IMG/VR virus record: IMGVR_UViG_3300028800_000081 | Coordinates: 9,133-73,132 of that record | DNA: 64,000 nt | From: a virus | Direction: 5' to 3' (one strand) | In this document: piece by piece, positions 10,865 through 37,466 of the stretch | How positions within the stretch are numbered: position 1 is the stretch's first letter | How the letters are laid out: each line of letters begins with the position of its first letter | Notes under the pieces: generated by a model | The model's database searches: none | The model's input: the letters and a program-made list of their open reading frames with translations, nothing else | What the model was told of the DNA's origin: nothing | Position numbers and translations under genes: made by a program

Positions 10865-10878
10865 GATACAATCCCCCC

Positions 10879-11584: not shown

Positions 11585-11799
11585 CGACCTATGACCTACC
11601 CGCTTCCGCAACGGCGTTCAGTGGAGTAGCATGAAAAAAATTGGGCCGAGGTGCTAGCCTCAGCCCGTTGGAATTCGATGCAGCGACGCGTCGTTATCCT
11701 CGAAAGAGGATATACGAAATGCTGTCGCACGCAACCGCTCATTTCACAGATATAAAATCCGTCGCATCGGCGGACGTAGCGCAACAAATTTTGAGCGTC

Positions 11800-12114
11800 T
11801 TACCAATCACCCCCGGCATTTCGCTGTTCCTTGATTGCGATGTCAGCGGCGAACTTCTGCCGGGCTTCGGCGTTGATCCTATAACCCTTGCTCGCGCACC
11901 ATTGCGGGAATGTACGCGGATTGATGTAGATGCGTCTGACGGCCTTACCGCCGCTCTTAAAGTCATTCTCAGCGCGCTCAAATGTGCGGACAAAATCTTT
12001 CCAGAGCGGCGGCAGTTCGTTGGCGTCTTCGCAGATAGCGAGGAAGGCGTCGTAATCTTCCTCCCGACACCACGGAAGGCCGAGGGGAATTAGCTTTGGA
12101 TCAAATGCTGGCAT
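11800..12114 (-). CDS. IS cargo: hypothetical protein
   Basis: RBS AGGAG; 104-aa ORF; 11-bp hairpin upstream at 12159-12188. Confidence 0.6.
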   Translation of the reverse strand: MPAFDPKLIPLGLPWCREEDYDAFLAICEDANELPPLWKDFVRTFERAENDFKSGGKAVRRIYINPRTFPQWCASKGYRINAEARQKFAADIAIKEQRNAGGDW

Positions 12115-12227
12115 TGTTTTGGAACTCCTAGGCGTTTGGCGATTCCTAGGATAACGGCGAAGCCCACCGGAGTCATTCGGTGGGCTTCTGCCTCTTCTGC
12201 CAGCGCAGGAACGCTTTCGCGTGCTGC

Positions 12228-13178: not shown

Positions 13179-13309
13179 GGGCAGAACCTCGATTTGTGAG
13201 GCGATTCTAGCCCTAGTTTCGTGTTACGTCAAGCCGATACTTCCCGCAGCGTCTTTCCCGCCCCATGCGCGTTCTCTCAAAGAGGCAGTCCGCCTCACGG
13301 AGAACTTCC

Positions 13310-19528: not shown

Positions 19529-20650
19529 CTACGCCTTCGCGCCTTTCAGCCGATCGCGGTTTGTCTTATAGGTCGCGTTCCACTTCGGCCGGAGATCGTC
19601 TTCGCGGTTCTTCTGTGCCAGTTCGCGGCACACCTGATCGTCGATATGATCGAGGTCCGACATGGCGTCGCAGGAATCGGCGAGATCGGATTGCTTGCCA
19701 AGCCAGTCCGCCGTCTCGTCGGGCTCGCGTTGCTGCTCGGGCGCGGGCTTCTGATCCGCCGCTTGTTCTGGCGCATTGATGGGTTCGGGCTTCACTTCCG
19801 CCTTTGGCTTCGTCTCAGGCTCGATGGGGGCCTTGGCAGACGTTTCCTGCGGCACTTCGATCGCCGGCTTGCCGAGATAGTCCTCGCGCCGTGGGCGCTC
19901 TGTGGGCCGCGTTGCTGGCGCTCCCCCGTGGTCTACAACGCGGCCGGCCATTTCCTCGGCGGCGTATTCGCCCCCAAGCTCTTCCGGGTAGGCGCGACGC
20001 AGGGCCGCCGCTTCGGCACATTTCTCGAGCTGCCCGCGCGGCCTGCCTTCCCACATCGAATTTGGCAGTTCAGAAAAGTGGCTCTTCGTCGCGTAGGTTT
20101 CCTCCCAATAAACGCGCGGCCCAGGGAACGGCACGCGGTTCCCCTGTAGCATCCGGTAAAGCGTAATCTGCGCCCATTCCGGGAACGTGACGGTGGCCTG
20201 CTCTTCCTTGTGATCCCTGTTCTCGCCGAAGAAGGTTTTCTCGATGTCGTCGCCGAACACACATGGATCGCAACCAGCATAGGAGCCGGTTCGCATCGCC
20301 GTGGTGCGCAGTTCCGATATGCTCGGCCAAACGGTTTCAACGGTTTTCCGCAGCGCCGAATTGTAGACGGGCACGATGTGCACCGGCCTCTTGAACGGAT
20401 CGAGTTGGCGGGCGCGGCAATACGAAAGCGCCATGATGACGGATTCGAGGCTTTGAGCGCCGGGCCAAATGGATTCGACCAGTACGCGCCAGCCAGCACG
20501 ATCGACGCCGAAGCGTTCCTCGATCAGCGGGTGGTATGGAAGCCTCTCGGCCGCCAGGCGGACGACTTCCTGCCCCTTGGTGGGCTGCTCCGGCGGCAAT
20601 GTCTGCGCCTGCGTCTTGTCCTTCGTGGTGGTGGATTTCGCCATTGTCAT
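19529..20650 (-). CDS. bet: ssDNA-annealing recombinase, Bet/RecT family
   Basis: YCRARQLDPFKRPVHIVP, LRTTAMRTGSYAG and MW..RPRGQLEKCAEAAALRRAYPE motifs. Confidence 0.88.
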   Translation of the reverse strand: MTMAKSTTTKDKTQAQTLPPEQPTKGQEVVRLAAERLPYHPLIEERFGVDRAGWRVLVESIWPGAQSLESVIMALSYCRARQLDPFKRPVHIVPVYNSALRKTVETVWPSISELRTTAMRTGSYAGCDPCVFGDDIEKTFFGENRDHKEEQATVTFPEWAQITLYRMLQGNRVPFPGPRVYWEETYATKSHFSELPNSMWEGRPRGQLEKCAEAAALRRAYPEELGGEYAAEEMAGRVVDHGGAPATRPTERPRREDYLGKPAIEVPQETSAKAPIEPETKPKAEVKPEPINAPEQAADQKPAPEQQREPDETADWLGKQSDLADSCDAMSDLDHIDDQVCRELAQKNREDDLRPKWNATYKTNRDRLKGAKA

Positions 20651-23583: not shown

Positions 23584-24210
23584 TTGAACCACATGGCAGC
23601 AAAACGAGGAACGCGCGCTAAGACGCCCGCGAAGGGCAAAGCAAAGCGCGGAGGCAAAAAATCACGCGCGGAATCCATGACCGGCAAGAAAGCCGCCGAA
23701 GTCGAGGGCCGCACGGGCGAACTGGAACTCAAGGAAGTTGAGATCGACGACGGCGACTTTGACATGCATTTCCGGGCACTGAAGGGCGCAACGGATCGCA
23801 TGAAAACTGCGAAAAACTTGTTCGATGGCTGCTGCAAAGCCGCGAAGAAGGTCAGCCCGGAACTGCTCGACGCCGTGAAGCGCGCGATCAAGTTCGAAGG
23901 CATGGACACCGAGGACATCAAGCGGCAGTTGCAGATCGACGGCTATGTGCTGCGGAAGACCGGGGCCCCGATCCAAATTACGTTGCATGACACGCTTCTC
24001 GGGGACGTTGATGACGCCGCCGAGGCGCGCGGGCGCAAGGATGCGGAAGGCGGGAAGTTTGCCAGTAATCCATACCCGGCCGGCTCCTCGCTGCACGAGC
24101 GCTATAAGATCGGCTGGGGCAAAGTGTCGGCCGAGCGGATCGCCGGCGCCGACGAGCATCCCAACAATGGTGCCATCGAACTCCGCGAAGAAGCCGAGGC
24201 TGCGGAGTGA
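23584..24210 (+). CDS. Hypothetical protein with basic N-terminus and Rmf-like C-terminal motif
   Basis: GRKDAEGGKFASNPY...YKIGW. Confidence 0.55.
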   Translation: MNHMAAKRGTRAKTPAKGKAKRGGKKSRAESMTGKKAAEVEGRTGELELKEVEIDDGDFDMHFRALKGATDRMKTAKNLFDGCCKAAKKVSPELLDAVKRAIKFEGMDTEDIKRQLQIDGYVLRKTGAPIQITLHDTLLGDVDDAAEARGRKDAEGGKFASNPYPAGSSLHERYKIGWGKVSAERIAGADEHPNNGAIELREEAEAAE

Positions 24211-24728
24211 TCCTGGCCTTGGACCTGTCGACCGTCAAAACCGGGTTTTCCTTCGGCGGCCAGAATGACGGCGCGCCGAAGGGGGGCGTGTGGCGCATGC
24301 CAGGCGCTGGGGCCGACGTGTTCGATCGCACGCTTGGTGGCATTTACGAGTCCGTCCTGATGATGGCGCGCGCGATCAAGGCCGAGCGCGTCTGCATCGA
24401 AGCCCCGCTCCTGCTCAATGACAGCGAGCACGGGGCGGCGATCACCATGGCGCTGGTCCAGCTTACCGGGGCGGCGCGCGCGGGGGCGCACAATGCCGGG
24501 TGCCTCGTGAAATGCGTTGCCGTCTCGACGGTTCGAAAGCATTTTATCGGGATAGGCAACCTTCCGAGCAAGAAGGCAAAGCAGGCCGTCATGGACCGGT
24601 GCACGCTGTTCGGATGGCCCTACGAGGACGACAACCAAGCCGACAGCAACGCGGTCTGGAGTTGGGGTATGTCGACCTACTATCCAAAGTGGAGTCCGCG
24701 CTCGACGCCTCTCTTCGCCAAGCGATAG
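24207..24728 (+). CDS. RuvC-like Holliday junction resolvase
   Basis: ILALDLSTVKTG, VCIEAP, VRKHFIG...KQAV and DDNQADS. Confidence 0.8.
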   Translation: MILALDLSTVKTGFSFGGQNDGAPKGGVWRMPGAGADVFDRTLGGIYESVLMMARAIKAERVCIEAPLLLNDSEHGAAITMALVQLTGAARAGAHNAGCLVKCVAVSTVRKHFIGIGNLPSKKAKQAVMDRCTLFGWPYEDDNQADSNAVWSWGMSTYYPKWSPRSTPLFAKR

Positions 24729-24736: not shown

Positions 24737-24792
24737 ATGCCAGCCTCCCGAAACGACCAATGGTCCGAAGAGGACAAGGAAACGCTCCGGAA
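24737..24792 (+). pseudogene. 5' fragment of a small gene (GcrA-like start) interrupted by the TnpB1 cassette
   Basis: RBS AGGAG; MPASRNDQWSEEDKETLR; continues as LRNYWP at 26094. Confidence 0.5.
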
Positions 24793-24817
24793 GAAAAGTG
24801 CGCCGTTAACTATCTGT

Positions 24818-24898
24818 TTGACATTTCTTCGCCGCCGCCCGATAAAGTTCGGGCTGATCCGACGTTTCCGCGTCGCCCAGCCCTGACCTTGACGGAGA
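24818..24898 (+). promoter_or_regulatory. tnpB1 promoter and hairpin leader
   Basis: TTGACA-N17-GATAAA; GGGCTG...CAGCCC-TGACC hairpin; GGAGA RBS. Confidence 0.65.
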
Positions 24899-24906
24899 GT
24901 AAGTCC

Positions 24907-26070
24907 GTGTCGGCTGACACCAACATAGCCACCCAATTTTTGACGTACAAGACGCGTCTGTTGCCCTCGCGCGGCCAGCACGACAAGATGCGCGCGGCCT
25001 TGGATCACACTCGCGATTTGTACAACGCAGCTCTCGCCGAGAGGATTGACTGCTATCGCAAGACTGGCAAAGGCCGAAGCTGGCCAGACCAATGTAAGGG
25101 CCTGACCGAATTACGCGCTGAGTCGGCTTGGACAATTTATCCTGTTTCTCTGCAACGATGGCCGCTGAAACAACTCGATTTGGCTTTTGCGGCATTCTTC
25201 CGGCGAGTCAAATCTCGTAACGGTCGGCCCGGCTTTCCGCGTTTTCGTGGCCGCGAATGGTTCAAGACATTCGGCTTCTCGGATCGTTTGGGCTGGGCAG
25301 TGAAAGGCTCTCGCCTTCGTATGAAGGGCATCGGGTCCGTTCGGTTGCATTTGCACCGCCCGCTGCCATCAAAACCAGTCGCCTGCAAGGTGAAGCGCGA
25401 AGGCCAAAACTGGTACGCGCTGTTGACTGTCGAAATTCCGTGCGTTGCTGAACATCGCGGCCCCGCAGTCGGGATCGACGTTGGTATCACTACGTTGGCA
25501 GCGCTTTCGACCGGTGAATTGATTGCCAATTCTAGGCCGTCCCGCCTGGCGCAGGCAGAAATTCGGCGTCGTCAACGCGCGCTCGCGAGGTGCAAGCGTG
25601 GGTCCAATCGGAGACGCAAGATTAAGGCGAGGCTGGCGGATCAGCATGCGAAAATCGCTCGCTCTCGCGAGACCTATTTGCATCAGATTACGGCCTCTAT
25701 TGCCGCGCGGTTCAGTTTGATTGCGGTAGAGAAACTGAATCTCAAGGGCCTCGCTGGCGGAATGCTGGCGAAGGAAGTTCACGATGTTGCATGGGGGCGC
25801 TTCAATCAATTTCTCCGCTACAAGGCCGCAAGAGCCGGTGGCAGTGTGATCGAAGTTGATCCAAATTACACTTCGCAGATATGTCCAGAATGCGGCGTCA
25901 TCAAGCGGAAGGAACTCTCTGAGCGGGCGCACTCGTGCCCGTGCGGTTGTGTGCTTGACCGCGATGTTGCTGCCGCAAAGGTCATTCTGCAGCGGGCCGG
26001 GAATGGTCCGTGGACACATAACGTGCCGGATGCGGCGCGTGTGTCCAGAAAGGTGCGGAGGGCTGCCTGA
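24907..26070 (+). CDS. tnpB: RNA-guided endonuclease TnpB (IS200/IS605 family), copy 1
   Basis: TYKTRLLP N-terminus, GFPRFRG, RuvC D (GIDVG), E (AVEKL), D (DRD), Zn finger CPEC/CPC. Confidence 0.95.
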   Translation: MSADTNIATQFLTYKTRLLPSRGQHDKMRAALDHTRDLYNAALAERIDCYRKTGKGRSWPDQCKGLTELRAESAWTIYPVSLQRWPLKQLDLAFAAFFRRVKSRNGRPGFPRFRGREWFKTFGFSDRLGWAVKGSRLRMKGIGSVRLHLHRPLPSKPVACKVKREGQNWYALLTVEIPCVAEHRGPAVGIDVGITTLAALSTGELIANSRPSRLAQAEIRRRQRALARCKRGSNRRRKIKARLADQHAKIARSRETYLHQITASIAARFSLIAVEKLNLKGLAGGMLAKEVHDVAWGRFNQFLRYKAARAGGSVIEVDPNYTSQICPECGVIKRKELSERAHSCPCGCVLDRDVAAAKVILQRAGNGPWTHNVPDAARVSRKVRRAA

Positions 26071-26113
26071 TGTCAGTCAACCGTATAATTCCCCTCCGGA
26101 ACTACTGGCCATT
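25992..26113 (+). ncRNA. omegaRNA 3' scaffold plus guide of TnpB1
   Basis: Stem with loop GGGAAT (25999-26004) pairs ATTCCC (26088-93); hairpin TGGACACA/TGTGTCCA followed by GAAA. Confidence 0.7.
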
Positions 26114-26128
26114 TCTCCGGCATTGACC

Positions 26129-28170
26129 ATGAGCGCCTCCCGGAAAGGTCTGAAGCGTCTCGGGCTTCGCCGGTATATCGTGGAAGGCCCGCGTCCGATG
26201 GTCATAGAGCGGGACCGCCCCTGGCGCTGGTTTGTTAGGCCGGCGTCCTATCCCAACGCGCCCGGCGGGTTCTTCTCGCAGACATTCCGGCGCCTTCGGT
26301 GCGCGCGGGCCTATGCGGAAGCGCAGGCGGGGATCGAACCATACCCCTATCTTGATATTCCTGTCTGTCTTCGCCGCTGGAAGCCGGGAGCGCGGACTTG
26401 ACGAATCTCGCGGGACAGTCATTAACTATTCGCGTCGGGGCGACGGTCTCGGCAAATGCGGCTGTCAGCCAGTCTCAGAGCGTGAATGCTGCAAAGCACT
26501 CCCTTCGAGGCTGAGACTGGCGGCAGTTCCTTGAAGGGGAAACGACATGCCTCAATCACTCAAAGACGCACTTGAACGCCTAGCGGTTGCGGGCCGGTAT
26601 CGTCCGCCTGGCGACATTCTGGCTGGCCCGCGCCGTCCAGAGCCGTTCCGCTGGTGGGTCGATAGGGCGAACTGATGGGCAAACAATCCTCGGTCAATTT
26701 CAGTGACAAGGCGAAGCGCGCGCGCGGCATTGAGCCGAGCGATGCGCTGAAGGAAAACGAGCGGCTGCATCTCGAGCTGATGGCGGCACAGCGGGCCGTG
26801 ACGGCCAAGGAGGCCCTGATGCGGGGCCGGCTCGAACGCATCCGTTCCGACGTCCGCGCGGCCGTTGAGGCTATGGACGCCGGACGTCGCGGCGAAGGCA
26901 TGCAGATCCTCCGCGCGCTTGTGCGGCCCAAGGACGGCAAGCTTTCCAGCGGTGAGCCCGCAGAGCCGGACGCGGCATGAGCGAAGATCAACCAAAATTC
27001 GAATATCGGTACATCCAGACTCGTCCGTGCGAGTGGTCCGTTTTTTTGATTTTCGACGACGAGTCGAACGTCTGGCGCCGCGTCGCCGTCTTTGTGAGTG
27101 AGGCGCGCGCGAAAAGCTACGCCGAAATCGAGCAGATGCGCGACGAGTGGGAAGGTGACAAGGGCGGCGAGGAAGGCGAACTGCTGTGCCAGATAACGGC
27201 GCGCGAACTCCCGGCCTCCCGCGTCACGCCTGATCGCATGATCCGCCGCGAGAGCATCGCGCACACCAGGATCGAACGTACCGAGGAAATCAGCCGAGCC
27301 GCTGTTGCGCTATTAACGCGCGAGGATCTCGCTGAGCTTCCCGCCGCGGTCATTGCGGAATTGAGCCCTGCCGCGCAGGCAGTTGCACTTTCACCCCCGG
27401 AACCTGCAATTGAGGCCACGCCTGTTGCTGTTAAAGGCAACACTCCAGAGCCGCCCGACGACGGCGCCGAGGAATATCCGCCCCTGCCAGAAGCGATCGA
27501 CTGCGCGACGCTTGAGCCGCTGACGGCGCTTCAGTTCAAGGTGCTTTCCGCCGTCCTCATGACGCGCGGCGCGGAAACATCCGGCGTCGCCTTGGACAAG
27601 GCGTCGGGCGTCATTGGCGCGTCGACACACACTCTTTCGCTCGCGAAAAAAGGCTACATCAGAATCCGCAAGCTTGGAAAGCATCGCTACGCCTATGACG
27701 GCCTGACGTTCGGGGCCCCGCGCGTAGGCGTGTACGATTCGAAAGCTGGGAAATGCGTCGGAAAATATGACGCGCCAGCCTCATTGCCTTCCAAAGCCGT
27801 TGAGCACCGACCTGCAGAGGTTGCAGCGGCTACCAAACCAGCGCAGAAATCAGAACCGGCGCGGGTCGCACCTATAAGTATCAGCCCCTCACCTGCAAGT
27901 AAGCCGTCTCACGCCCGCCCGACGCCTCCCAACGGCACACGCTTCCCCATCGCTGGCGACCCCGAGCATGGCCGCAGCGCGCTCGACGCCGACGATGGCC
28001 GCATCCATGTCATCTCCTACCTGACGCGCAAGGGTCACACGGTGTCGCTGGCTGAAGGTGGCTGGCGGGTGGATGGGCGGATCAAGCGCGTCGACGAAGC
28101 ACTGGAGTTGATCAACAGCTACCGCGCCAAGGCGGAACTTCCGCCCGCGCTCGCGAGCATGCTGGCATGA
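26129..28170 (+). other. Hypothetical ORFs (26129-26401, 26675-26980, 26977-28170 with possible winged HTH)
   Basis: Coupled ORFs leading into dnaB. Confidence 0.5.
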
Positions 28171-29672
28171 ACAAGCCGGAGAAAGACTTCAGACGATCGC
28201 TGCCCTGTTCGATCGAGCTTGAACAGGCCGCCATCGGGGCCTGTTTGGTCGACAACCGGCTGATCGAAGTCCTCGCCGCCGACCTTGAGCCCGAAGCTTT
28301 GTTCGACCCGCTTCACCAGCGCATCTATGGGCTCATCCTCGCGCTCTCGGCCGAAGGCAAAGTCGACCCGCTGATCCTCAATTCCGTGATGGCGCACGAT
28401 GACGGCCTCAAGATCGTCGGAGGCATCGGCTACCTCGCGAATCTCGCCCAGGCGGCACCGGCTCGCCCGAACGTCACGGAATACGCGCGCGCGCTCAAGG
28501 AACTCGCCCAACGCCGCCGGCTGATCGAGATAGGCGAATCGCTTCTTGACGACGCCTATGCGGCGACGGGCGATCGGTCCTCGGATGAACTCGTGACCCG
28601 CCACGCCGACGCGCTGCTCCGAATCGGGGAGGGGCGAAAGACCGGGACGAAGCACCTTGCCGACGTTGTCACGGCCAGCCTCACGCAAGCCGAGAAGCAT
28701 CTGGCGGGCGAGAAGATTGCGGCCGTCGAGACAGGTATCGGCCCGTTTGATCGCGCCATAGGCGGCCTACAGCCGGGCGACCGGGTAGCGATCGCGGCTC
28801 GCACCGGAATGGGCAAGAGTTTGACCGCCTCGGCAATCGCCAACGGACTGGCGCGGAATGGTGCACCGGTCTTCATCGCAAGCGGTGACATGCGGGCGAA
28901 GCAATGGGGCGATCGCGCGGCGTGCGACGTTGAGTCGTTCCTGCATCCAGGAGAGCCCTACATTTCGTATTCGAAGTTCCGGGCCGGCCTGCTCTCTAAC
29001 AAGGAAATCTATCGCCTGGCGCTCGCGCAACACGAGATGCAGGCATGGGCGATCGACATAGACGACAATCCGACGATCAACGTGGCGACGTTCCGCGGCC
29101 GGGTGCGCGAGATGGCGCGGCGGTATCCGGGCCAGCAAGGCGTTGCGATCCTGGACTTCATCCAGAAGGTCAAGCCCGAGAAGGGCGGAAAGCGCGACCA
29201 GCGGCGCGACGAAGACCTGACGGAGATATCCTACGACCTCGGCGATATCTGTGGAGAACTCGGCTGGTCGCTGATTGCCTTGGTGCAGCTCAAGAACAAG
29301 GCGACCGACGCCAAGGGACAGCTTTCCGAGGCGCCGCCCAGCGTTGCCGATATCCGCGAATCGGGCGGGATCGAGATGGCCTTCGACATCATCGTCAGCC
29401 CGTTCCGCAAGGCGTTTTTCATCGAGCGCCGTGAGCCTGAAGGCAAGCACAACGCCGGCGGCCCGCCGCCTGAATGGATCTCGTGGAACGCCGAAATGGC
29501 GGAGCATCGGAACAAGCTTCGCCTGCTCGGGTGGAAGAATCGGGACGGCAACGCGGCGGTGCTCAATCTCGATCTGTGGTGCAACCCCGCGACCGCGACG
29601 GTCTGCGAATACGCGCCGGAACGCAGCACGCAACAGACAGCCGACCTTCTGGCGTTCGGAGCGCCGGGGTGA
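28167..29672 (+). CDS. dnaB: Replicative helicase, DnaB family
   Basis: N-domain ELEQAAIGACL/HQRIY; Walker A ARTGMGKS; ILDFIQ; DIRESGGIE; KNRDG. Confidence 0.92.
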   Translation: MNKPEKDFRRSLPCSIELEQAAIGACLVDNRLIEVLAADLEPEALFDPLHQRIYGLILALSAEGKVDPLILNSVMAHDDGLKIVGGIGYLANLAQAAPARPNVTEYARALKELAQRRRLIEIGESLLDDAYAATGDRSSDELVTRHADALLRIGEGRKTGTKHLADVVTASLTQAEKHLAGEKIAAVETGIGPFDRAIGGLQPGDRVAIAARTGMGKSLTASAIANGLARNGAPVFIASGDMRAKQWGDRAACDVESFLHPGEPYISYSKFRAGLLSNKEIYRLALAQHEMQAWAIDIDDNPTINVATFRGRVREMARRYPGQQGVAILDFIQKVKPEKGGKRDQRRDEDLTEISYDLGDICGELGWSLIALVQLKNKATDAKGQLSEAPPSVADIRESGGIEMAFDIIVSPFRKAFFIERREPEGKHNAGGPPPEWISWNAEMAEHRNKLRLLGWKNRDGNAAVLNLDLWCNPATATVCEYAPERSTQQTADLLAFGAPG

Positions 29673-30709
29673 GCGCCTACTACAATGAAATCGACCCCTA
29701 TGCAGCACAATGGCTGCGCAACCTTATTGCTGCGGGACACATTGCCGATGGTGAAGTTGACGAACGATCAATCATCGACGTTCCCGCCGCCGATCTCCGC
29801 GACTTCACGCAATGCCATTTCTTCGCTGGAATCGGCGGGTGGTCTGTCGCACTCAGGCTCGCAGGATGGCCCGATGATCGACCTGTTTGGACAGGAAGTT
29901 GCCCCTGCCAGCCCTTTAGCGCCGCCGGAGCGGGCAAGGCGGCCGATGACAGCCGTCACCTGTGGCCTGCGTGGTTTTCTCTCATCTCCGTCGCACGCCC
30001 TGCAATCGTCTTTGGAGAGCAGGTTGAAGCGGCAATTGGATGGGGTTGGCTCGACGCTGTTTTCGCTGACATGGAAGGCGCGGGCTACGCCTGCGGGGCG
30101 TCCGTACTTCCAGCTTGTGGCATCGGCGCGCCGCACATCAGACAGCGAACTTGGTTCGTGGCCGACGCCAATGGCGGGGACGCCGGCGCAGCGGGGCTAC
30201 AACGAAGCGGGGAACACGGACAGCGGGCGCAAGACGGTCGCGCTGGTGAGTTCCTGGCCGACTCCGCGCGCGGAAGACAGCGAGAGTTCGGGAATGCGTC
30301 ACGGCCGCGGAGTGGCGGACACTCTGACGGCGGTATCGAGCCTAGCGGCTTGGACAACCCCGCAAGCGCACGACACGCACAAGCGCGGCGCGGGGAATCG
30401 CCTCAATCCGAAGGGCGGCGGGGGATGTTTGGCGTCGGAAGCGATCCTCGCGAGTTGGGCGACACCAACGGCGGACGACGCGGACAATGTGACGAGGGCG
30501 AGCGGCCAATATCAATCGCTAACGCGACAGGCGATGACGCTTGGTCAAATCTCGAATGGCTCGCCTGCACAGACGGAAGATCGCGGCCAGTTGAGCCCGG
30601 GACATTCCCGCTGGCTCATGGGATACAGCGTCGAACATCTAAGCTGCGCGCCTACGGCAATGCCATCGTCCCGCAAGTCGCGGCGGAGTTCATAAAGGCG
30701 TTCGCGTGA
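29669..30709 (+). CDS. C5-cytosine DNA methyltransferase, alpha chain
   Basis: Motifs I FFAGIGG, IV PCQPFS, VI EQV, VIII HIRQRTW and X YGNAIVPQVA; no motif IX. Confidence 0.9.
   Translation: MSAYYNEIDPYAAQWLRNLIAAGHIADGEVDERSIIDVPAADLRDFTQCHFFAGIGGWSVALRLAGWPDDRPVWTGSCPCQPFSAAGAGKAADDSRHLWPAWFSLISVARPAIVFGEQVEAAIGWGWLDAVFADMEGAGYACGASVLPACGIGAPHIRQRTWFVADANGGDAGAAGLQRSGEHGQRAQDGRAGEFLADSARGRQREFGNASRPRSGGHSDGGIEPSGLDNPASARHAQARRGESPQSEGRRGMFGVGSDPRELGDTNGGRRGQCDEGERPISIANATGDDAWSNLEWLACTDGRSRPVEPGTFPLAHGIQRRTSKLRAYGNAIVPQVAAEFIKAFA
29874..30695 (+). CDS. Probable methyltransferase beta chain in overlapping frame
   Basis: Open >270 codons inside the alpha gene; WPTP repeats; motif IX-like GQLSPGHSRWLMGY. 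Confidence 0.7.
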   Translation: MIDLFGQEVAPASPLAPPERARRPMTAVTCGLRGFLSSPSHALQSSLESRLKRQLDGVGSTLFSLTWKARATPAGRPYFQLVASARRTSDSELGSWPTPMAGTPAQRGYNEAGNTDSGRKTVALVSSWPTPRAEDSESSGMRHGRGVADTLTAVSSLAAWTTPQAHDTHKRGAGNRLNPKGGGGCLASEAILASWATPTADDADNVTRASGQYQSLTRQAMTLGQISNGSPAQTEDRGQLSPGHSRWLMGYSVEHLSCAPTAMPSSRKSRRSS

Positions 30710-30938
30710 CGTTCCCTCTTGCATCGCGCCCGTTGTGATTCGTCTCGCGGAGGCACAAGACATAGCGGCTTGCGATTTTCCGAATCTGGGCCAATCGTGA
30801 GGGGCTTGACGGGCGCGGTCGACTTGCCGCACATTCCGTCCGCTTGATGGCCCTAAGCAAGCCATCTGTTCGCGGTTGTCGGCCGGGCCTGGGCGTTCCA
30901 GGTCAGGCTCGGCGGCAGCTCCCTGGAACCGTAGGAAC

Positions 30939-31400
30939 ATGAACTCAGTCACAAATACGCCCAGAAGCAATCAGCACGATCCAGCCAGAGACGCGCGGAT
31001 CGTTGCTCACTATCTGACGCCGCACTCAATGGAAGAGACGGGCGCGGAATTTGGCATCTCGAAGCAGCGCGTTCATCAAATTTTGGACCGCGTTGGGGTA
31101 GCTATTAGGCACGGCATCGGCGCCACAATGGCTGCGAGAATCGCTTCAGGGCAAGTCGCTCGCGCAGAGGCTGAAGCTAAGACAAAGGTCAAACGGGATC
31201 GCCAATTGCGGCAAAAAACCATTGCCGCGCTTGCTTTTGGCGATGGATATAGATTGCGCGAAATCGCTCGGTTTCTTGATTTTAATAGTCCGCAGCATGT
31301 GAATTCGTTGCTTCGAAAGATTGGCGCCCCTTTCCGAAAGCCAGAGGCGCACGAGCATATGAAACGCCGATGGGAAATGCGGCGCGAGTTAGCGAAATGA
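30939..31400 (+). CDS. Sigma70 region-4-like double-HTH protein
   Basis: SMEETGAEFGISKQRVHQIL and YRLREIARFL. Confidence 0.7.
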   Translation: MNSVTNTPRSNQHDPARDARIVAHYLTPHSMEETGAEFGISKQRVHQILDRVGVAIRHGIGATMAARIASGQVARAEAEAKTKVKRDRQLRQKTIAALAFGDGYRLREIARFLDFNSPQHVNSLLRKIGAPFRKPEAHEHMKRRWEMRRELAK

Positions 31401-31552
31401 AAATTACGCCTTCCACATTCACGCAAAGCCGCCCGGCATTATGCCGTCTGAGCGGTCAGCATGGCTATGGAAAGCGAAACGGCCCGGTGCCTTTGAGGGC
31501 GTTCCGGGCCGCTTGCGTAGGGAGGAAAAGCCTTCCGAGGGGCGCGCTTGAT

Positions 31553-31888
31553 ATAGCGTTTCCCCACTCCCCGCGCAAGCCGATCCGTCCTCAACGGCCC
31601 GGCGGTCGCCTAGACCGTCACAAATCGCTGGCTCTGCTCCCCACGGCACCCAGCGGCCCAAACGGAGCGCGCGCGAGCGCGAACGTATGAGATGGTGACG
31701 GTCGGGAAACCCCAAGTCCAAAGCCTCGTAGGGTTTTCCAGGAGGGCGGCCATAACAACGCTCTCAGGCGGACGGCCTTAAGGACAGGGCCGGGGCGAAA
31801 GCCCGAGTGACGAGTACGCGGGGGAGGAATCCTCTTGGCCATAGGCGGCCTCCACCATACTCCGGTGGGCGGAAAGTGGGGAAGCTAT
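31553..31888 (+). ncRNA. Large structured non-coding element (RNA or ssDNA origin)
   Basis: Nested long-range helices and a GNRA hairpin; no convincing ORF; strand assumed. Confidence 0.6.
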
Positions 31889-31899
31889 GGAGAGGCGCG

Positions 31900-32349
31900 A
31901 TGAAGGCGACGGTCGGAAGCAAAAAGTGGCACAAGCGCCACAAGCGAAAGATGCACAAACGCAGAGGCGCTTCGTGGTGCCTCGTGTACGGGCTCTATGA
32001 CCCGCGCGACGAAGCAAAGGCGATCCGGTATGTCGGGCAAACGAGGAATTCTAAAGTTCGCCTCGCCTATCATCTGAAAAACGCGCGCGACGGGAAAGCC
32101 GGCCGCGTTCTCGCTTGGATACGCGAACTATTGGACGCTGGCGTTGCTCCCGTGCTGGCGGTCCTCGACGGCGATGGCGCGTGGGACGTCTCAGAGATTA
32201 TCTGGATCGAACGGCTGCGCGTCGGCGAAGCCGATCTTCTGAATGTGCTTCGCGGTGGCTGCGATCAAACGCAACGCCGCGGACGGATCGAACGACATCC
32301 TGACGCAATCGCGCTGAACGAAGAATTTCGCGCGGTGATCGGCCCGTGA
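31900..32349 (+). CDS. GIY-YIG-like nuclease
   Basis: VYGLYDPRD...IRYVGQT...RLAYH...E..WI...LLN. Confidence 0.7.
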   Translation: MKATVGSKKWHKRHKRKMHKRRGASWCLVYGLYDPRDEAKAIRYVGQTRNSKVRLAYHLKNARDGKAGRVLAWIRELLDAGVAPVLAVLDGDGAWDVSEIIWIERLRVGEADLLNVLRGGCDQTQRRGRIERHPDAIALNEEFRAVIGP

Positions 32350-32386
32350 ACCACATCAACCCGAGCGAATGGAAAGGCGAACTGCC

Positions 32387-33118
32387 ATGAGGGAAATTGA
32401 CAAGACTGCGATGTCGTACTGGTTCCCGAAGATTGAGGCGGCTGGGCTTCCTGTCCCTCGCACGACGATGGTGCCAATGCCGACTGATGCACAGCGCGAC
32501 TTATTCCGAAGCTTTGACCAAGAACAGATGCATGGCGAATACGCTGCGTTCGTCAAGACACTTGAGCCGATAGCCGAATCCCTTGGATATCCATGTTTTG
32601 TGCGGACGGAATTCACATCCGCGAAACACGATTGGGAATTAGCATGTTACGTCAAGGCGTACGCGGAATTGGCCGACCATATTTCGCACATCGTATATTT
32701 CAGCGAGTGCTGCGCTCCCGGAGGAGAGTTAGGTTACAACTTTTGGGCAATCCGAGAGTTCCTTCCTACGATGCCCATCGGCGTCTGCCGCGGATACAGC
32801 AACATGCCGATTTGCCGAGAGTTTCGGTTTTTCGTCGAAGACGATAAAGTTGTGTGCTGGCATCCCTACTGGCCTCGTCACGCGCTTGACGATGGCAACC
32901 CGGTATATTCCGGACCCCCTATGAGTTACGAAGAATTCTGCACGCCGCCAGACTTGGCCGCGCTAGAAAAGATCGCATCTGATGCAGGGCGCGCTGTTGG
33001 CGGAGCTTGGTCGGTCGACCTTCTCGAAACGAAGCGCGGATGGTTCCTGACTGACATGGCAGAAGCGCACAGGTCTTTCCATTGGGAAGGTTGCCAAGTT
33101 CACGGAAAGCAACGCTGA
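32387..33118 (+). CDS. ATP-grasp domain protein (R2K-like)
   Basis: GYPCFVRT..SAKHDW, IREFL, REFRFFV, WSVDLL and WFLTD. Confidence 0.7.
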   Translation: MREIDKTAMSYWFPKIEAAGLPVPRTTMVPMPTDAQRDLFRSFDQEQMHGEYAAFVKTLEPIAESLGYPCFVRTEFTSAKHDWELACYVKAYAELADHISHIVYFSECCAPGGELGYNFWAIREFLPTMPIGVCRGYSNMPICREFRFFVEDDKVVCWHPYWPRHALDDGNPVYSGPPMSYEEFCTPPDLAALEKIASDAGRAVGGAWSVDLLETKRGWFLTDMAEAHRSFHWEGCQVHGKQR

Positions 33119-33702
33119 TGGACGACACGCAATTCGCCAACGGCCTGCTCGAATTGTGGACGGCTCACGACACAGCCGGGTCACGAACCTACATCGCATC
33201 GAACGGCGGCATGTCTCGTGTCATTGCCCTCGCTGTCCGCGGCGCCGTGCGGGCAAAGCGTGATGCGACCAAGACCGCGAAGGGCACGCCGCTGTCTGCG
33301 GACTTCCCGGACCGAATCGCCCTCGACAACGCCCTCGAATACTGGCGCAAGCACAAGCGGCCCGACATCTGCCTGAAGATCGAAGAGGTCTCGGATCACT
33401 TCCGCCGTCACCACGCGGAGCACAAGGCGCTGAGCTGGCCCCGCACCTGGGCGACGTGGTACTGCAATCAGATCAATTTTATCCGCGCGCCGGCGTCGAT
33501 GCAGACCGCAACCGTCATTCCCATCAACGGCACGCCGCAAGAGTGGGCGAATCGGGTGCGGATTTGGGACGGCACGAGCGGCGACGCTGACCTTCCGCCC
33601 GGCACATGGTCGGACAAATGGGGCCCGAAGCCCGGCGAGCCCGGTTGCCGAGTCCCGGACGAAGCGTATGGTCTGGCGAGACCGAAAGCAGCGAGGGCGT
33701 GA
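33118..33702 (+). CDS. Replication protein C-terminal-type (DnaT-like) domain protein
   Basis: FRRHH...SWPRTWATWYCN and WGPKPGEPGCRVP, typical of C-termini of alphaproteobacterial phage initiators. Confidence 0.55.
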   Translation: MDDTQFANGLLELWTAHDTAGSRTYIASNGGMSRVIALAVRGAVRAKRDATKTAKGTPLSADFPDRIALDNALEYWRKHKRPDICLKIEEVSDHFRRHHAEHKALSWPRTWATWYCNQINFIRAPASMQTATVIPINGTPQEWANRVRIWDGTSGDADLPPGTWSDKWGPKPGEPGCRVPDEAYGLARPKAARA

Positions 33703-34496
33703 TGGGTGAGAGAACCGAAATTTCATGGGCGGACAGCACGTTCAATCCGGTCGTGGGATGCACGAAGGTGAGCGCGGCATGCGATCATTGCTACGCGGAA
33801 TCTTGGGCCAAGCGGGCCGGTCAGCCGGAGTTGTGGCAGGGCGAACGCCGCCGCACGACGCCTGAGAACTGGCGCAAGCCTCTGAAGTGGGATCGCGATG
33901 CCGCGCTGTCGGGGCGCCGACCGCGCGTGTTCTGCGCTTCGCTGTCGGATGTGTTCGACAATCAGTGGGAACCAGAATGGCGTAGAGACCTGTGGCAACT
34001 GATAGCCGAGACACCGCATCTCGATTGGCTGTTGTTGACGAAGCGGCCGCAGAACATCGCGAAAATGCTTCCGAGCGGCGACCTCGCAAAATTCCTCCCG
34101 TGGCCGTGGCCGAATGTTTGGCTCGGCACGACGGCAGAAAATCAGACTGAGGCTAACAGGCGGGTGCCGCACCTCGTCGCAGTTCCTGCGGCCGTCCGGT
34201 TCCTCTCATGCGAGCCGCTGCTCGGACCGATCAATCTCGCACTGGCGGGATTGGAGGTATGCTTGAACGACTTCGACACGCCATGCACGACGAACATTTC
34301 GTGGGTGATTTCAGGCGGGGAGAGTGGGTCGCATCATCGCCAAACGGACCCCGCGTGGATCCGGTCGTTGCGCGATCAGTGCTACGCTGTGGACATTGCG
34401 TTCCATCACAAACAGAACGGCGGCAAACGGCCGAAAGATGGCGGATGTTTGCTCGACGGTCGCGAGCACAAAGAGTTTCCGAGGATGGCAGCGTAA
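33702..34496 (+). CDS. Phage Gp37/Gp68 (DUF5131) family protein
   Basis: TEISWADSTFNPVVGCTKVSAACDHCYAE, LLLTKRP, FLSCEPLLG and WVISGGESG. Confidence 0.92.
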   Translation: MGERTEISWADSTFNPVVGCTKVSAACDHCYAESWAKRAGQPELWQGERRRTTPENWRKPLKWDRDAALSGRRPRVFCASLSDVFDNQWEPEWRRDLWQLIAETPHLDWLLLTKRPQNIAKMLPSGDLAKFLPWPWPNVWLGTTAENQTEANRRVPHLVAVPAAVRFLSCEPLLGPINLALAGLEVCLNDFDTPCTTNISWVISGGESGSHHRQTDPAWIRSLRDQCYAVDIAFHHKQNGGKRPKDGGCLLDGREHKEFPRMAA

Positions 34497-35875
34497 TGGC
34501 AAAGGTTGGAACACGAGCGGCCCCGAAGCTCCCCGCGCAGGCGAACGGCAAGCCGCTCGAGATCGTGTACCGCGATCCGAAGGAACTGAAGCCGGATGCG
34601 AGAAATTCTCGTGTCCATAGTCCCGAGCAAATTGAACAACTCAGGGCCTCGTATCGACGCTTCGGATGGACGTCGCCGGTCTTGCTTCGTCCTGACGGTT
34701 CAATCGGTGCCGGTCACGCTCGCGTGCGCATGGCGATCCTCGAAAAGATCAAATCCGTCCCCACCGTCACGATCGACCTCACCGAGAAGCAATGGCGCGC
34801 GTACGCAATTGTGGACAACCAGTCCGCACTCAATGCTTCTTACGATCTCGACATTCTCCGCACCGAACTCGACGAGCTAAACGGCGACTTCAACCTAATC
34901 GAGGAAATGGGCTTTTCACTCGACGAACTCGCGGACCTCGAAGTCCCAGGATTCACGCTCGACGAAACAAACGAGCGCGCCGAAGAGACGCCGCCTGTTC
35001 CTGCAAATCCGGTCGTGAAGCGCGGCGAGCTTTGGCTGCTCGGGAAGCATCGTGTGCTATGCGGCGACTCGACGAAGGCTGACGACGTGGCGCGGCCTCT
35101 CAACGGCGCGAAGCCGCATCTGATGGTCACCGATCCGCCGTATGGCGTGAACTACGATGCCGACTGGCGCAATCGCGCCGACAGAGCAAACGGGCGTCCC
35201 TACGGCGCTCGCGCGGTAGGGAAAGTGACGAACGACAACCGATCCGATTGGCGCGAAGCGTGGGCGCTCTGCCCTTCCGACGTAATTTATGTTTGGCACC
35301 CGGCGGGTGCCAAACAGGTGGAATTTTTCCACAGCATCGTCGATTCTGCATTCGAATTTCGAATGCAGATCATCTGGGCGAAGCAACAATTCCCAATCGG
35401 CAGAGGCGACTATCACGTCAAGCACGAACCTTGCTGGTACGCGGTGCGCAAAGGCAAGACCGCGCACTGGAACGGGAGTCGCACAGAGTCGACGCTGTGG
35501 GAGATCGACAAGCCGCACAAATCAGAAACGGGGCACTCGACACAGAAACCGATTGAGTGCATGCGCAAGCCCATCCTAAACAATTCGAAGCCCGGAGATT
35601 CCGTCTACGACCCGTTCCTCGGCTCTGGAACAACGCTCATCGCAGCCGAGATGGAGAAGCGCATCTGTCTAGGAATTGAGATCGCGCCAGAATATGTCGA
35701 GGTCATCATCCGACGCTGGGAAAAGTTCACATCCAAAACTGCGAAACGCGAAGACGGCGCAACGCTTGAAGACCTTCTCGACGCCAGAACGGCTGGTAAG
35801 GCTGTGGCTGGCATCGCGACCGGCAAGACGAAGCTCGTCCGTGGCAAGCGGCTCGCCAAGGCTCTGGCGACGTGA
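34496..35875 (+). CDS. ParB-N domain fused to N6A/N4C DNA methyltransferase
   Basis: RNSRVHSPEQI/AGHAR ParB-like domain; TDPPY, HSTQKP and DPFLGSG. Confidence 0.92.
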   Translation: MAKVGTRAAPKLPAQANGKPLEIVYRDPKELKPDARNSRVHSPEQIEQLRASYRRFGWTSPVLLRPDGSIGAGHARVRMAILEKIKSVPTVTIDLTEKQWRAYAIVDNQSALNASYDLDILRTELDELNGDFNLIEEMGFSLDELADLEVPGFTLDETNERAEETPPVPANPVVKRGELWLLGKHRVLCGDSTKADDVARPLNGAKPHLMVTDPPYGVNYDADWRNRADRANGRPYGARAVGKVTNDNRSDWREAWALCPSDVIYVWHPAGAKQVEFFHSIVDSAFEFRMQIIWAKQQFPIGRGDYHVKHEPCWYAVRKGKTAHWNGSRTESTLWEIDKPHKSETGHSTQKPIECMRKPILNNSKPGDSVYDPFLGSGTTLIAAEMEKRICLGIEIAPEYVEVIIRRWEKFTSKTAKREDGATLEDLLDARTAGKAVAGIATGKTKLVRGKRLAKALAT

Positions 35876-36057
35876 CCCGCGTCCTGCAATGGGCACGCAC
35901 GGAAGCCGAGGCGAAGCGCATGCAGGCCGAGGGCTGGATCGTGCCCGAGCAGGCCGTGACGCATCACACGCGCTGGTCGATCCTGCTCGAATGGCCCGGC
36001 CCCGGCGATCCTCCCGGACTTGACGCCGCCCCGCCACAGGCCGCAGATGGCTGAGAT

Positions 36058-36143
36058 TTGACTTATGCGCGCGCCTGGGGGTAAAAAGTTCGGGCCGATG
36101 GGCGTGTCACCGCCGAATCGACCCTGACCGTAGCGACTGGAGA
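36058..36143 (+). promoter_or_regulatory. tnpB2 promoter and hairpin leader
   Basis: TTGACT-N17-GTAAAA, AAGTTCGGGCCGAT...ATCGACCC-TGACC and GGAGA; same layout as tnpB1. Confidence 0.65.
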
Positions 36144-36148
36144 TCGCC

Positions 36149-37291
36149 TTGGCTAAGCAAGCCGTACCAAAACTCATCCGAACGTACAAGTTCCGATTGC
36201 TGCCGCGCAAGGCGCAGCACGTCCGTTTGCGCGCTGCGCTTGATCACACACGAGATATTTACAACTCCGCGCTGGAGTCCCGCATCTCTGCCTACCAGAA
36301 GCTCGGCAAGACGATGGGCTATGTGCGCCAGTGTCGTGAGCTTACGGAATTGCGCGGCGATCCCGGTTACACGGAATTTCCAGTCGCTCTCCAGCGCTGG
36401 CCGTTGAAGCGGCTTGACGACGCGTTCGCCGCATTCTTCCGCCGTGTGAAAGCAGGCGATAGCCCTGGCTTTCCTCGCTTCAAGGGCCGCGACTGGTTCA
36501 AGAGCTTCGGCTTTTCTGATCGCTATGGCTGGAAGCTAGACGGCTCGCGCCTCTACATGAAAGGTATCGGTCGCGTGAAGGTGCATATGCATCGTGCGTT
36601 GCCATCCGCGCCGATTTTGTGCCAGATCAAACGCGATGCGAATGGTTGGGCTGTTCTACTCGTCTGCGAGGTAAGTGCCGAGCCATTGCAGGAAACTGGC
36701 AGAAACATCGGCATCGACCTCGGCATAACGTCGTTCATCGCCACGTCGGACGGCGAGACGGTGCCAGGGTTTCACGCGGCGAGGCGTGCGCAAGCGCAGA
36801 TGCGCAGGCGTTCGAGGGCGCTTGAAAGATGCAAGCGGGGTTCGCGCAACAGGCGGAAGGCGAAGACTTGCGTTACGGCGGCGCATGAAAGCATCGCCAA
36901 CGAGCGCCGAACGTTCCTGCATCAAGTGGCAGCGAAACTTGTGCGCGAAAATGACATGATCGCCGTCGAAAATCTAAACGTCAAAGGTCTTGCGCGCGCC
37001 ATGCTTGCCCGCGATGTCAACGATGCTGGATGGTCCACCTTCACACGCCTCCTAATCGAAAAGGCTGAGAGAGCCGGTCGGTTGGTCGTAAAAGTCGATC
37101 CTAGATACACGAGCCAAGCCTGTTCCGGCTGTGGGGTTATCGTGCCGAAGGCGCTAGGCGTCCGCGTGCACGATTGCCCAGATTGCGGATTGCGTTTGGA
37201 TCGTGACGTAAACGCAGCAAAAAATGTGCTGCACAGGGCGGTAACGCGCCCTGACGCGCTTCAATGCCGGGAGTCACTGGTATGCGCGTAG
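36149..37291 (+). CDS. tnpB: RNA-guided endonuclease TnpB, copy 2
   Basis: TYKFRLLP, GIDLG, AVENL, CSGC/CPDC and DRDVNAAKN; catalytic triad intact. Confidence 0.95.
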   Translation: MAKQAVPKLIRTYKFRLLPRKAQHVRLRAALDHTRDIYNSALESRISAYQKLGKTMGYVRQCRELTELRGDPGYTEFPVALQRWPLKRLDDAFAAFFRRVKAGDSPGFPRFKGRDWFKSFGFSDRYGWKLDGSRLYMKGIGRVKVHMHRALPSAPILCQIKRDANGWAVLLVCEVSAEPLQETGRNIGIDLGITSFIATSDGETVPGFHAARRAQAQMRRRSRALERCKRGSRNRRKAKTCVTAAHESIANERRTFLHQVAAKLVRENDMIAVENLNVKGLARAMLARDVNDAGWSTFTRLLIEKAERAGRLVVKVDPRYTSQACSGCGVIVPKALGVRVHDCPDCGLRLDRDVNAAKNVLHRAVTRPDALQCRESLVCA

Positions 37292-37336
37292 AAATGTCGG
37301 GCAACCGATTCGTTACCGTATGTCTCGCGTTGCGCT
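37234..37336 (+). ncRNA. omegaRNA 3' scaffold plus guide of TnpB2
   Basis: CAGGGCG/CGCCCTG stem with loop GTAACG pairs CGTTAC (37311-16); ACGCGC/GCGCGT hairpin then AGAAA; TCGG-GCAA-CCGA tetraloop. Confidence 0.72.
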
Positions 37337-37466
37337 TCGCACGCCTTCTCGCCATGGCAGAGCGCGCACGCAAACAGCCACGCATAGCGACATTCCTCCG
37401 CGCATGTGCGGATCGCGCGCAAGGCGAAGGCGAGTTCTATCAAGGCGCACCGGGAGGTAGACTGCG

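Follow-up and report, generated by a model that had tools for sequence, protein, structure and literature searches.

The usual explanation for TnpB is that it helps the scarless, single-strand transposition of IS605 and IS607 elements. This analysis concerns two TnpB cassettes, T1 and T2, in a 64,000-nucleotide stretch of viral DNA (the window: bases 9133-73132 of the 73,132-bp IMG/VR record IMGVR_UViG_3300028800_000081, rated complete by CheckV), and coordinates are window positions unless another contig is named. We favor, as the likely reading of these sequences and their relatives, that the TnpB lineage has left IS200/IS605 and now rides a transposon type of the IS1595 family, which moves by a DDE transposase, with T1 as a non-autonomous element mobilized in trans. 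In the closest described system, the ISDra2-type TnpB of IS200/IS605, the guide RNA (omegaRNA) overlaps the 3′ end of the gene, is closed by a pseudoknot and ends at the element boundary, with the flank as guide; this ending of the scaffold at the transposon boundary in IS200/605 is noted by Yoon et al. (2023, NAR, PMC10711439), and a 2026 review describes IS200/IS605 elements as having neither inverted repeats nor target duplications. The viral cassettes resemble this system in protein family and domain order, T1 aligning over nearly its full length, and in all of these omegaRNA features. They differ from it in having no Y1 TnpA and no subterminal hairpin ends; the elements have terminal inverted repeats (TIRs) and 8-bp target-site duplications (TSDs), and the guide begins with the duplicated target.

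Three further systems lie close. First, Altae-Tran et al. (2023, PNAS, PMC10691335) describe six DDE-associated TnpB branches with inverted terminal repeats, in which the 3′ end of TnpB lies no more than 250 bp from the transposon end, and solo TnpBs whose ends are nearly identical to those of transposase-bearing copies, implying mobilization in trans; the window's family is alike in having TnpB inside inverted-repeat transposons and in its solo copies. IS630 is the only DDE family named in the main text of that paper, in which neither IS1595 nor ISXO2 occurs, and the 2026 review names ISL2, IS630 and IS1031. In the part of that paper available to us, we have not seen described for those branches a fusion of repeat terminus and pseudoknot or a phage family with methylase cargo. 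A link of TnpB with IS1595 or ISXO2 was not found in the literature by title or abstract opening, and the supplementary branch list of PMC10691335 may overlap with the present case. Second, the IS1595 member ISApl4 has terminal inverted repeats and A/T-rich 8-bp direct repeats (PMC12561309), and shares with the family found here an ISXO2-like DDE transposase with an N-terminal zinc ribbon. Unlike ISApl4, T1 has no transposase of its own, carries an RNA-guided nuclease and is flanked by a G+C-rich duplication, and the repeat family around it lies largely in viral contigs and often carries methylases. Third, the Fanzor nucleases of eukaryotic TIR transposons are likewise TnpB-like cargo of cut-and-paste elements with the repeat as part of the scaffold, the guide-RNA scaffold taking in both inverted repeat and duplication (PMC10711439). 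Fanzor1 has the duplication within the scaffold and no pseudoknot, whereas the elements described here retain the pseudoknot, and their variable 8-bp duplication would be read as the start of the guide. A TnpB borne by a DDE transposon with inverted ends is a kind already known; what appear to be new are the carrier family, the fusion of repeat terminus and pseudoknot, the phage-borne family with methylase cargo and the series of decay from T1 to T2.

The two genes, the only TnpB genes in the whole record, are as follows.

24907-26070, + strand: tnpB-1 (T1), 387 aa, GTG start; motifs GIDVG, AVEKLN and DRD
36149-37291, + strand: tnpB-2 (T2), 380 aa, TTG start; motifs GIDLG, AVENLN and DRD

PF12323, PF01385 and PF07282 (HTH_OrfB, OrfB_IS605/RuvC and the zinc-ribbon/TNB domain) score above cut-off in both proteins, which are 55% identical over 358 residues and both contain the D-E-D RuvC motifs GID.G, AVE.LN and DRD, so that the original prediction of two related TnpBs with intact triads holds. 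Residues 14-361 of T1 align with the solved ISDra2 TnpB chains (8h1j and 8bf8, E 3e-43), and its three RuvC motifs line up in an alignment with the designed ISDra2-like nuclease 9yyg. For T1 we take the GTG at 24907 as the start; a longer open reading frame (ORF) from 24760 is unlikely because the helix-turn-helix begins at residue 62 of that longer frame. Judged by sequence, both cassettes are TnpB-omegaRNA modules, with cleavage activity predicted.

The carrier is read most directly from T1, which is laid out as follows.

24793-26093, + strand: T1, a probable non-autonomous IS1595-type TIR element of 1301 bp with tnpB and omegaRNA, its length as in relatives
24785-24792, no strand: 5′ copy of the 8-bp TSD CTCCGGAA, an 8/8 match to 26094-26101, where the 3′ copy adjoins the 3′ TIR
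24805-24822, + strand: decayed 5′ TIR GTTAACTATCTGTTTGAC, 12/18 to the family consensus and 12 nt inside the TSD
26076-26093, − strand: 3′ TIR GGGAATTATACGGTTGAC, 15/18 to the family consensus
25990-26093, + strand: predicted omegaRNA-1 scaffold (P1, P2, GAAA, a long-range helix involving the TIR, and the pseudoknot strand)
26094-26113, + strand: predicted guide of T1, the 3′ TSD copy CTCCGGAA plus flank, directly after the pseudoknot strand

When T1 and its viral relatives are aligned with their flanks, similarity starts and stops at a terminal inverted repeat of about 19-25 bp (GGGRAWTTATATACTTGAC / GTCAAGTATATAAWTCCC). The segment 26076-26093, alone in the window, matches the consensus repeat with three mismatches or fewer (0.01 expected) and is at the same time the last 18 nt of the omegaRNA. 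In a scan it agrees at 14/18 with the right TIR of the complete transposon in the window (below), and a letter-by-letter comparison with the left TIR gives 15/18. The nearest TnpB elements (L008, L171, L009 and L010) measure 1293-1312 bp, against 1301 bp for T1, and have both ends, their 5′ TIRs departing from the consensus by one to four mismatches; L008, L171 and L009 are flanked by 8/8 duplications, and the sequences around these insertions are unrelated. The 5′ TIR of T1 includes the TTGAC read earlier as a −35 box, and the three bases before its 5′ TSD copy are ACG. The T1 duplication itself is G+C-rich, unlike the A/T-rich duplications of the family. From their ends, we read T1 and these nearest TnpB elements as non-autonomous copies within a TIR/TSD transposon family of IS1595 type, their insertion sites being unrelated to one another. 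T1 probably arrived by transposition and was retained for the sake of its RNA and protein; with its 5′ repeat decayed, it has probably lost its mobility. The original prediction saw no IS200/IS605 subterminal hairpins, and indeed no hairpin motif common to both ends was found, but T1 does have a 3′ TIR, a decayed 5′ counterpart and an 8-bp TSD, which had been overlooked because they are not of the IS200/IS605 type. Its description of T1 as transposase-free and free-standing does not survive the TIR, the exact 8-bp duplication and a co-resident IS1595 transposase. Two other signals at T1 were set aside. TTGAC is not taken as the target-adjacent motif of an IS605-like left end, given that the repeat runs on beyond TTGAC and that the 13 nt upstream of it are conserved and recur inverted at the opposite end. 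Direct repeats of 11 nt on either side of T1 (24743 and 26135) are attributed to chance.

The omegaRNA ties the transposon end to the nuclease, and can be compared between T1 and the corresponding features of T2.

37232-37316, + strand: predicted omegaRNA-2 scaffold, same layout as omegaRNA-1
37317-37336, + strand: predicted guide of T2, directly after the pseudoknot strand

Common to both is a 3′ layout of a stem with a 6-nt loop, a long hairpin, GAAA, a third helix and 6 nt complementary to the loop, with fold z-scores of -5.08 (T1) and -4.12 (T2). The pseudoknot joins loop GGGAAT (25999-26004) to the 3′ strand ATTCCC (26088-26093) in T1, and loop GTAACG (37241-37246) to CGTTAC (37311-37316) in T2. 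Regions 3′ of the DRD codons were taken from 20 relatives, the first stem-loop and its downstream complement were located, and 16 were aligned. In this alignment RNAalifold recovers P1, a long P2 and a long-range helix 3′ of the conserved GAAA, with compensatory changes at 21 of 23 pairs; with the pseudoknot included, 94.2% of 449 cells pair, against 63.6% in shuffled controls (0 of 500 reach the observed value) and 29-47% with slid partners. The pseudoknot helix is 98.9% paired across the 16 relatives, with double changes at five of its six pairs, and nine loop types occur, each with its complement (GGGAAT, GGGATT, GTGTCT, GTGCAA, GTTCGT, GTAGTG, GTGCTG, GTACTG and GTAACG). The 3′ ends in the 16-sequence alignment were chosen by complementarity, and a perfect complementary site is not rare by chance (22 found, 11.7 expected); the pseudoknot test was therefore repeated on ends fixed by inverted repeat and target duplication. 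Among ten such elements, eight have a 6-nt loop (closing stem of at least 5 bp) with full complementarity to the terminal hexamer, and two, L359 and L418, fail. In the helix built on the TIR, the pairing is GUGCGG/CCGUAU in T1 and AUAUGC/GUAUAU in relatives, the three departures of T1's 3′ TIR from the consensus being matched by changes in the upstream strand. Both structural claims of the original prediction, a shared 3′ RNA layout with a covarying pseudoknot and a scaffold that closes exactly at the element end so that the flank is the predicted guide, are thus borne out. Because the final hexamer of the inverted repeat doubles as the 3′ strand of the pseudoknot, the guide would start with the target duplication. 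At up to three mismatches, the predicted T1 guide has no second match in the window; the predicted T2 guide has only two others, each with three mismatches. The T1-type omegaRNA pattern matched 26 viral stretches, only three of them with a TnpB, all already in the set. Developers of tools may find such compact omegaRNAs (about 85-105 nt) of interest, as well as their interchangeable pseudoknots.

The transposon type itself is represented in the window by a complete member.

10100-13245, no strand: autonomous IS1595-type transposon with cargo, 3146 bp; TIRs 10100-10117 and 13228-13245 (16/18)
12228-13178, − strand: IS1595/ISXO2-like DDE transposase, 316 aa, N-terminal zinc ribbon; PF12762 E 7.5e-36, PF12760 E 6.9e-8

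The partner TIR was located by scanning with the transposase-proximal repeat, and the perfect 8-bp TSD GCAGCGTC flanks the element at 10092-10099 and 13246-13253. PF12762 has this one gene in the whole record, in all 73,132 bp of which neither a Y1 transposase (PF01797) nor a serine recombinase (PF00239, the IS607 TnpA) was found. With a complete IS1595-type transposon and an intact transposase in the window, the T1/T2 pair is not transposase-free: the earlier statement stands for Y1 and serine TnpA but not for the DDE transposase. Cross-mobilization of T1 by this transposase is plausible. Three cargo ORFs of the transposon (10178-10864, − strand; 11045-11584 and 11641-12093, + strand) belong to no Pfam family, the second weakly resembling a PHROG without assigned function (E 1.6e-4).

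Beyond the window the repeat is widespread, a degenerate pattern (GGRAWTTATATASTTGAY) occurring in at least 120 IMG/VR viral stretches. Among the matches listed of the repeat GGGAATTATATACTTGAC, with three mismatches allowed, there are 66 inverted pairs, at least 61 of them distinct, spaced 0.33-3.5 kb apart. The 61 listed pairs are flanked by 40 exact 8-bp direct repeats, one of 7/8 and 19 of 6/8 or less, with one pair unscored at a contig edge; the 40 exact duplications among these listed matches are 82% A+T. By tblastn, 30 of the 61 listed hold a full-length transposase, five a partial one and seven a TnpB; the other 19 comprise five with a methylase only (two queries), ten below 700 bp without a match and four larger ones without a match. 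All five transposases tested are DDE_Tnp_IS1595 with Zn_ribbon_IS1595 by Pfam. Methylases are frequent cargo (N6/N4 and C5 types by Pfam, more by PHROGs, phrog_757 and phrog_116), and a phage transposon family that is widespread and mobilizes DNA methylases matters for how anti-restriction functions spread. Family members among the loci L272-L391 (e.g., L283:1681-2583, L313:11437-13065 and L322:5962-9470) have a TIR of about 22 bp, GGGAATTATATACTTGACTCCC, and members range from 0.33 kb, resembling miniature inverted-repeat transposable elements, to 3.5 kb, often carrying orphan DNA methylases.

The phylogenetic setting of the two TnpBs bears on the same question. In a quick FastTree of 240 TnpBs, with sampling uneven across collections, T1 falls in a five-row clade in which all five rows carry the repeat (support 99), and T1 and T2 fall together in a 27-row clade (support 99) with nine repeat-bearing, 18 unlabelled and no Y1 rows. 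Fifteen of the 17 repeat-bearing rows lie within a 70-row clade that also holds six Y1 rows, and the repeat label changes six times on the tree against 16.7 times when shuffled. With midpoint rooting, the sister of T2 consists of the T1 group together with L004, L176 and L012. A Y1 gene adjoins TnpB in 68 of 245 loci, mostly directly upstream (one was confirmed as PF01797); among loci at least 47% identical to T1 or T2 the count is 0 of 28, against 68 of 217 for the others. The close clade is poorly represented in species-representative genomes, where the best match is 51% identical. As proteins, 53 homologues of T1 reach 70% identity or more. The same ends also occur in bacteria. In the metagenome-assembled genome (MAG) that contains locus L096, the repeat pattern is present at five sites, four of which bound TnpB elements of 1189-1213 bp (duplications 8/8, 7/8, 8/8 and 8/8; proteins 39-44% identical to T1 and T2) and the fifth an IS1595-type transposase; a Steroidobacteraceae MAG (L090) and a Gammaproteobacteria MAG (L094) have such ends too. 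Since same-ended TnpBs are multi-copy in one bacterial MAG and present in others, the association is neither phage-only nor single-copy. A phage-only clade without tnpA, as suggested earlier, is supported in so far as none of the 28 close loci has a Y1 gene and contradicted by the multi-copy, same-ended relatives in bacterial MAGs; the contrary possibility raised there, ordinary multi-copy elements mobilized in trans by a host TnpA, comes close to the situation in the L096 MAG, with a DDE transposase in place of TnpA.

Other relatives add observations of their own. TnpBs only 34-39% identical to T1/T2 lie inside the same TIR type at L359:2157-3334 and L387:3023-4213, pointing either to repeated TnpB capture or to an old association. 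A TnpB at L172:3830 (about 47% identical to T1/T2) is accompanied by diverged direct repeats of about 80 nt, both starting TATGTCC, unlike the 8-bp TSD pattern. A Bryobacterales TnpB has an 11-nt direct repeat, GTAATTCAAAT, near both ends (L089:3355-3470 and 4620-4646), which is not an inverted repeat and whose 3′ copy lies inside the omegaRNA tail.

T2 keeps its promoter-like boxes, leader, intact gene and omegaRNA. Local alignment of its flanks yields just a weak inverted match of 19 nt (35902-35920 with 37331-37348) and 8-mers at the level expected by chance, and nowhere does the 8-mer of its 3′ flank recur beside anything repeat-like. Close homologues of the T2 protein reach 75% identity, and the T2-type omegaRNA motif was found in only one other viral contig, L011, where an inverted repeat (11/14) stands at the consensus distance from TTGAC, 13 nt ahead of it, with no duplication. 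T2 may be an old insertion with decayed ends, its hexamer and loop co-changed to CGTTAC/GTAACG, or a cassette acquired by recombination.

From these observations we propose the following course of events. The lineage of both cassettes would have left IS200/IS605 for an IS1595-family (ISXO2-like DDE) transposon type common in phages, and a DDE transposase acting in trans would have pasted T1 into the intergenic space after a resolvase gene, duplicating 8 bp; the transposon at 10100-13245 is one candidate for having provided that enzyme. In T1 the 5′ inverted repeat would supply a −35 box, and the 3′ inverted repeat would be built into the omegaRNA, its middle pairing with an upstream strand and its last six bases closing the pseudoknot with a loop that lies in the tnpB coding sequence. 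By analogy with ISDra2-type TnpB, the scaffold would end at the transposon end and the next 16-20 nt or so, target duplication plus flank, would be the guide. The occupied locus would be safe, the 5′ junction matching the guide over 8 nt only and the target at the 3′ junction being preceded by ATTCCC; alleles without the insertion would be cut, by the same analogy, if a suitable motif precedes the target, and the RecT pathway of the phage might then copy the element in. T2 would be a further-decayed or differently acquired relative, its hexamer and pseudoknot loop co-changed away from the transposase-type end.

A candidate for the required motif comes from the T1-subclade elements with clean duplications (n = 4), in which the preceding bases are ACG, ACG, CCG and ACG. 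CG precedes the target in all four, against 4 of 72 control flanks (those of 36 non-TnpB elements), and ACG in three of four against 0 of 72. We offer tentatively, as a possibility, a bolder version of the reading: a switch of carrier from IS605 to a phage IS1595-type transposon with the guide RNA welded to its end, survival of insertions dependent on (A/C)CG, and T1 and T2 as stages toward a homing endonuclease. If it is true, one hexamer would serve as the transposase-bound terminus, as a pseudoknot strand and, via the partner loop, as protein-coding sequence, and the target duplication would become the guide seed. Insertions would then survive in phages mainly where (A/C)CG precedes the target, the nuclease would drive them through co-infecting genomes, and T1, with its repeat half-decayed, and T2, with no repeat left and a re-coded pseudoknot, would be successive stages from cargo to a free-standing RNA-guided homing endonuclease.

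Several results weigh against our proposal and should be set beside it. For T1, the 5′ TIR matches at only 12/18 and lies 12 nt inside the duplication, and the CTCCGGAA duplication has chance 8-mer odds of about 1 in 1000 by our own estimate for a search space of about 60 nt. Among relatives, L010 has inverted repeats perfect over 25 bp but a flanking duplication of only 1/8; 19 of the 61 listed pairs, including the TnpB elements L010, L090 and L387, have no clean duplication, some of them clearly as one-base offsets or mispairings; and L004, L176 and L012, in a nine-row clade, are without these ends. The window transposase is 37-43% identical to those of the elements with consensus repeats. 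For T2, local alignment of the flanks found no 5′ TIR, TSD or larger composite structure, and its last 18 nt agree with the window transposon TIR at 10/18 in a letter-by-letter comparison. The (A/C)CG motif is post hoc and comes from four elements, and the copies in the L096 MAG have no common motif before the target. Cleavage and homing are inferred from the biology of ISDra2-type TnpB, and no joints skipping T1 or T2 were found among contigs of four rhizosphere runs, where coverage is thin.

The alternative closest to the original prediction is that both cassettes are transposase-independent phage homing units, spread only by the cutting of empty alleles and recombinational repair, which we consider unlikely. 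It would account for T2, L004, L176 and L012, whose genes and omegaRNAs are intact and which have no recognizable transposon ends, and for the lack of a TnpA in the record; the decayed 5′ repeat of T1 next to a 3′ repeat kept by RNA pairing likewise suggests selection for the nuclease and not for transposition. Since neither ends nor an empty site were found for T2, a homing-only life is conceivable there. The machinery is at hand: the Bet-mediated repair invoked earlier finds its counterpart in a RecT-family recombinase (PF03837, E 2.2e-18), which, with a weak exonuclease-like ORF (PHROG E 1.6e-4, no Pfam match) and a RuvC-like resolvase, makes repair-based copying feasible. Such copying of a transposon between co-infecting phages or plasmids is raised as a possibility, under the name non-restorative homing, in the 2026 review. 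As the route of arrival, though, free-standing homing does not fit T1, L008, L171 and L009, which lie at unrelated sites with IS1595-type repeats and exact 8-bp duplications, the mark of transposition, and a matching transposase lies in the window. No empty allele was seen among viral contigs, methylase relatives or rhizosphere-run contigs.

Very unlikely, in our view, are domesticated TnpBs that serve the phage, for example in RNA-guided repression or attack on host or competitor DNA, the flank guides being incidental. Two intact, diverged copies with their own promoters in one phage, a T2 without transposon ends and the existence of exapted TnpBs speak for this, but the catalytic motifs are intact, unlike those of the inactivated exapted forms described in the available part of PMC10691335, the guides match nothing else in the window apart from the two 3-mismatch matches of T2, and the marks of transposition at T1 are fresh. 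More improbable still is that the cassettes are ordinary IS200/IS605 elements of the IS1341 type which a host Y1 TnpA moves in trans: T1 is homologous to ISDra2 TnpB and its more distant relatives include classical tnpA-tnpB units (the 68 of 245 loci with an adjacent Y1), yet no locus among the 28 at 47% identity or more has a Y1 gene, the two ends have no hairpin motif in common, and inverted repeats and target duplications are foreign to IS200/IS605 as described in the 2026 review. That the T1 inverted repeat and duplication arose by chance, the omegaRNA tail merely resembling an IS1595 repeat, is scarcely credible, since for all the weakness of the 5′ repeat and the 12-nt offset of the duplication, the 3′ match is expected only 0.01 times and the same ends with duplications recur in the nearest relatives and in transposase-bearing elements.

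The transposon-borne reading, which we prefer, also touches a wider question, for, according to the argument of the 2026 review, a DDE cut-and-paste element has little need of TnpB. With a conserved 22-bp end and a clean 8-bp duplication, with autonomous and TnpB-only partners together, once in a phage and once in a bacterial genome, and with a guide RNA that physically contains the transposase site, this is a tractable natural system for asking why DDE elements carry TnpB. It bears on the payoff of a guide nuclease on a DDE transposon, on the variable duplication as guide sequence, and on whether or not phage TnpBs are gene-drive or competition devices.

Upstream of the genes, the cassettes have promoter-like boxes and a common leader.

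24818-24846, + strand: T1 promoter-like TTGACA-N17-GATAAA, position kept in relatives, whose −10 boxes are better
36058-36086, + strand: T2 promoter-like TTGACT-N17-GTAAAA, read from sequence
24847-24906, + strand: T1 leader, with a bipartite hairpin, CCCTGACC and, ahead of the GTG, a second hairpin whose loop contains GGAG (from covariation and fold)
36087-36148, + strand: T2 leader, layout as in T1 (from alignment with relatives)

The TTGAC-N17 promoters claimed for the cassettes are present as boxes at both, but neither was called in a promoter scan, because the −10 has no T at position 6. The leader common to T1 and T2 consists of AAAGTTCGGGCYGAT, a hairpin and then CCCTGACC, and the leader alignment has compensatory changes at 11 of 16 pairs; the claim of a shared leader is upheld for the sequence blocks and the hairpin, although the folds are thermodynamically weak (z-scores of only -2.15 for T1 and -0.43 for T2). 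The conserved 5′ leader also occurs in L011, L007, L014 and L089, again as a bipartite hairpin, CCCTGACC/CTCTAACC and a second hairpin, the last presenting the ribosome-binding site in its loop. The leaders of T1, T2 and L011 have AAAGTTCGGGC in common although the proteins are only 49-55% identical, and the leader is missing from some TnpB elements, e.g., L090.

The soil phage that carries all this has a G+C content of about 60% across the window, which encodes a portal protein, DnaB, several DNA methylases, RecT and a RuvC-like resolvase, the last two placed as follows.

19529-20650, − strand: RecT-family recombinase, the "Bet" of the original prediction
24207-24728, + strand: RuvC-like Holliday junction resolvase, directly upstream of T1 (phrog_159, E 8e-13)

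Rfam and tRNA searches gave no match. Close relatives of the phage were not found among GenBank phages (by blastn) or in IMG/VR; in the search for relatives with an empty site, DnaB patterns had no match in viral contigs, and the methylase relatives did not share flanking genes with the window phage. Parts of the window are present in contigs from four rhizosphere metagenome runs. Contigs of three runs (X2-X4) match the window up to 26455 and then diverge, and other run contigs match only from 37563 on, which suggests a variant phage in which an 11-kb replication/methylase module including T2 is replaced. Just past the breakpoint at 26455, in the 445 nt of non-coding DNA that separate T1 from the following gene, lies a perfect 11-bp inverted repeat, GCCAGTCTCAG ... 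CTGAGACTGGC, with a loop of about 30 nt (26468-26525).

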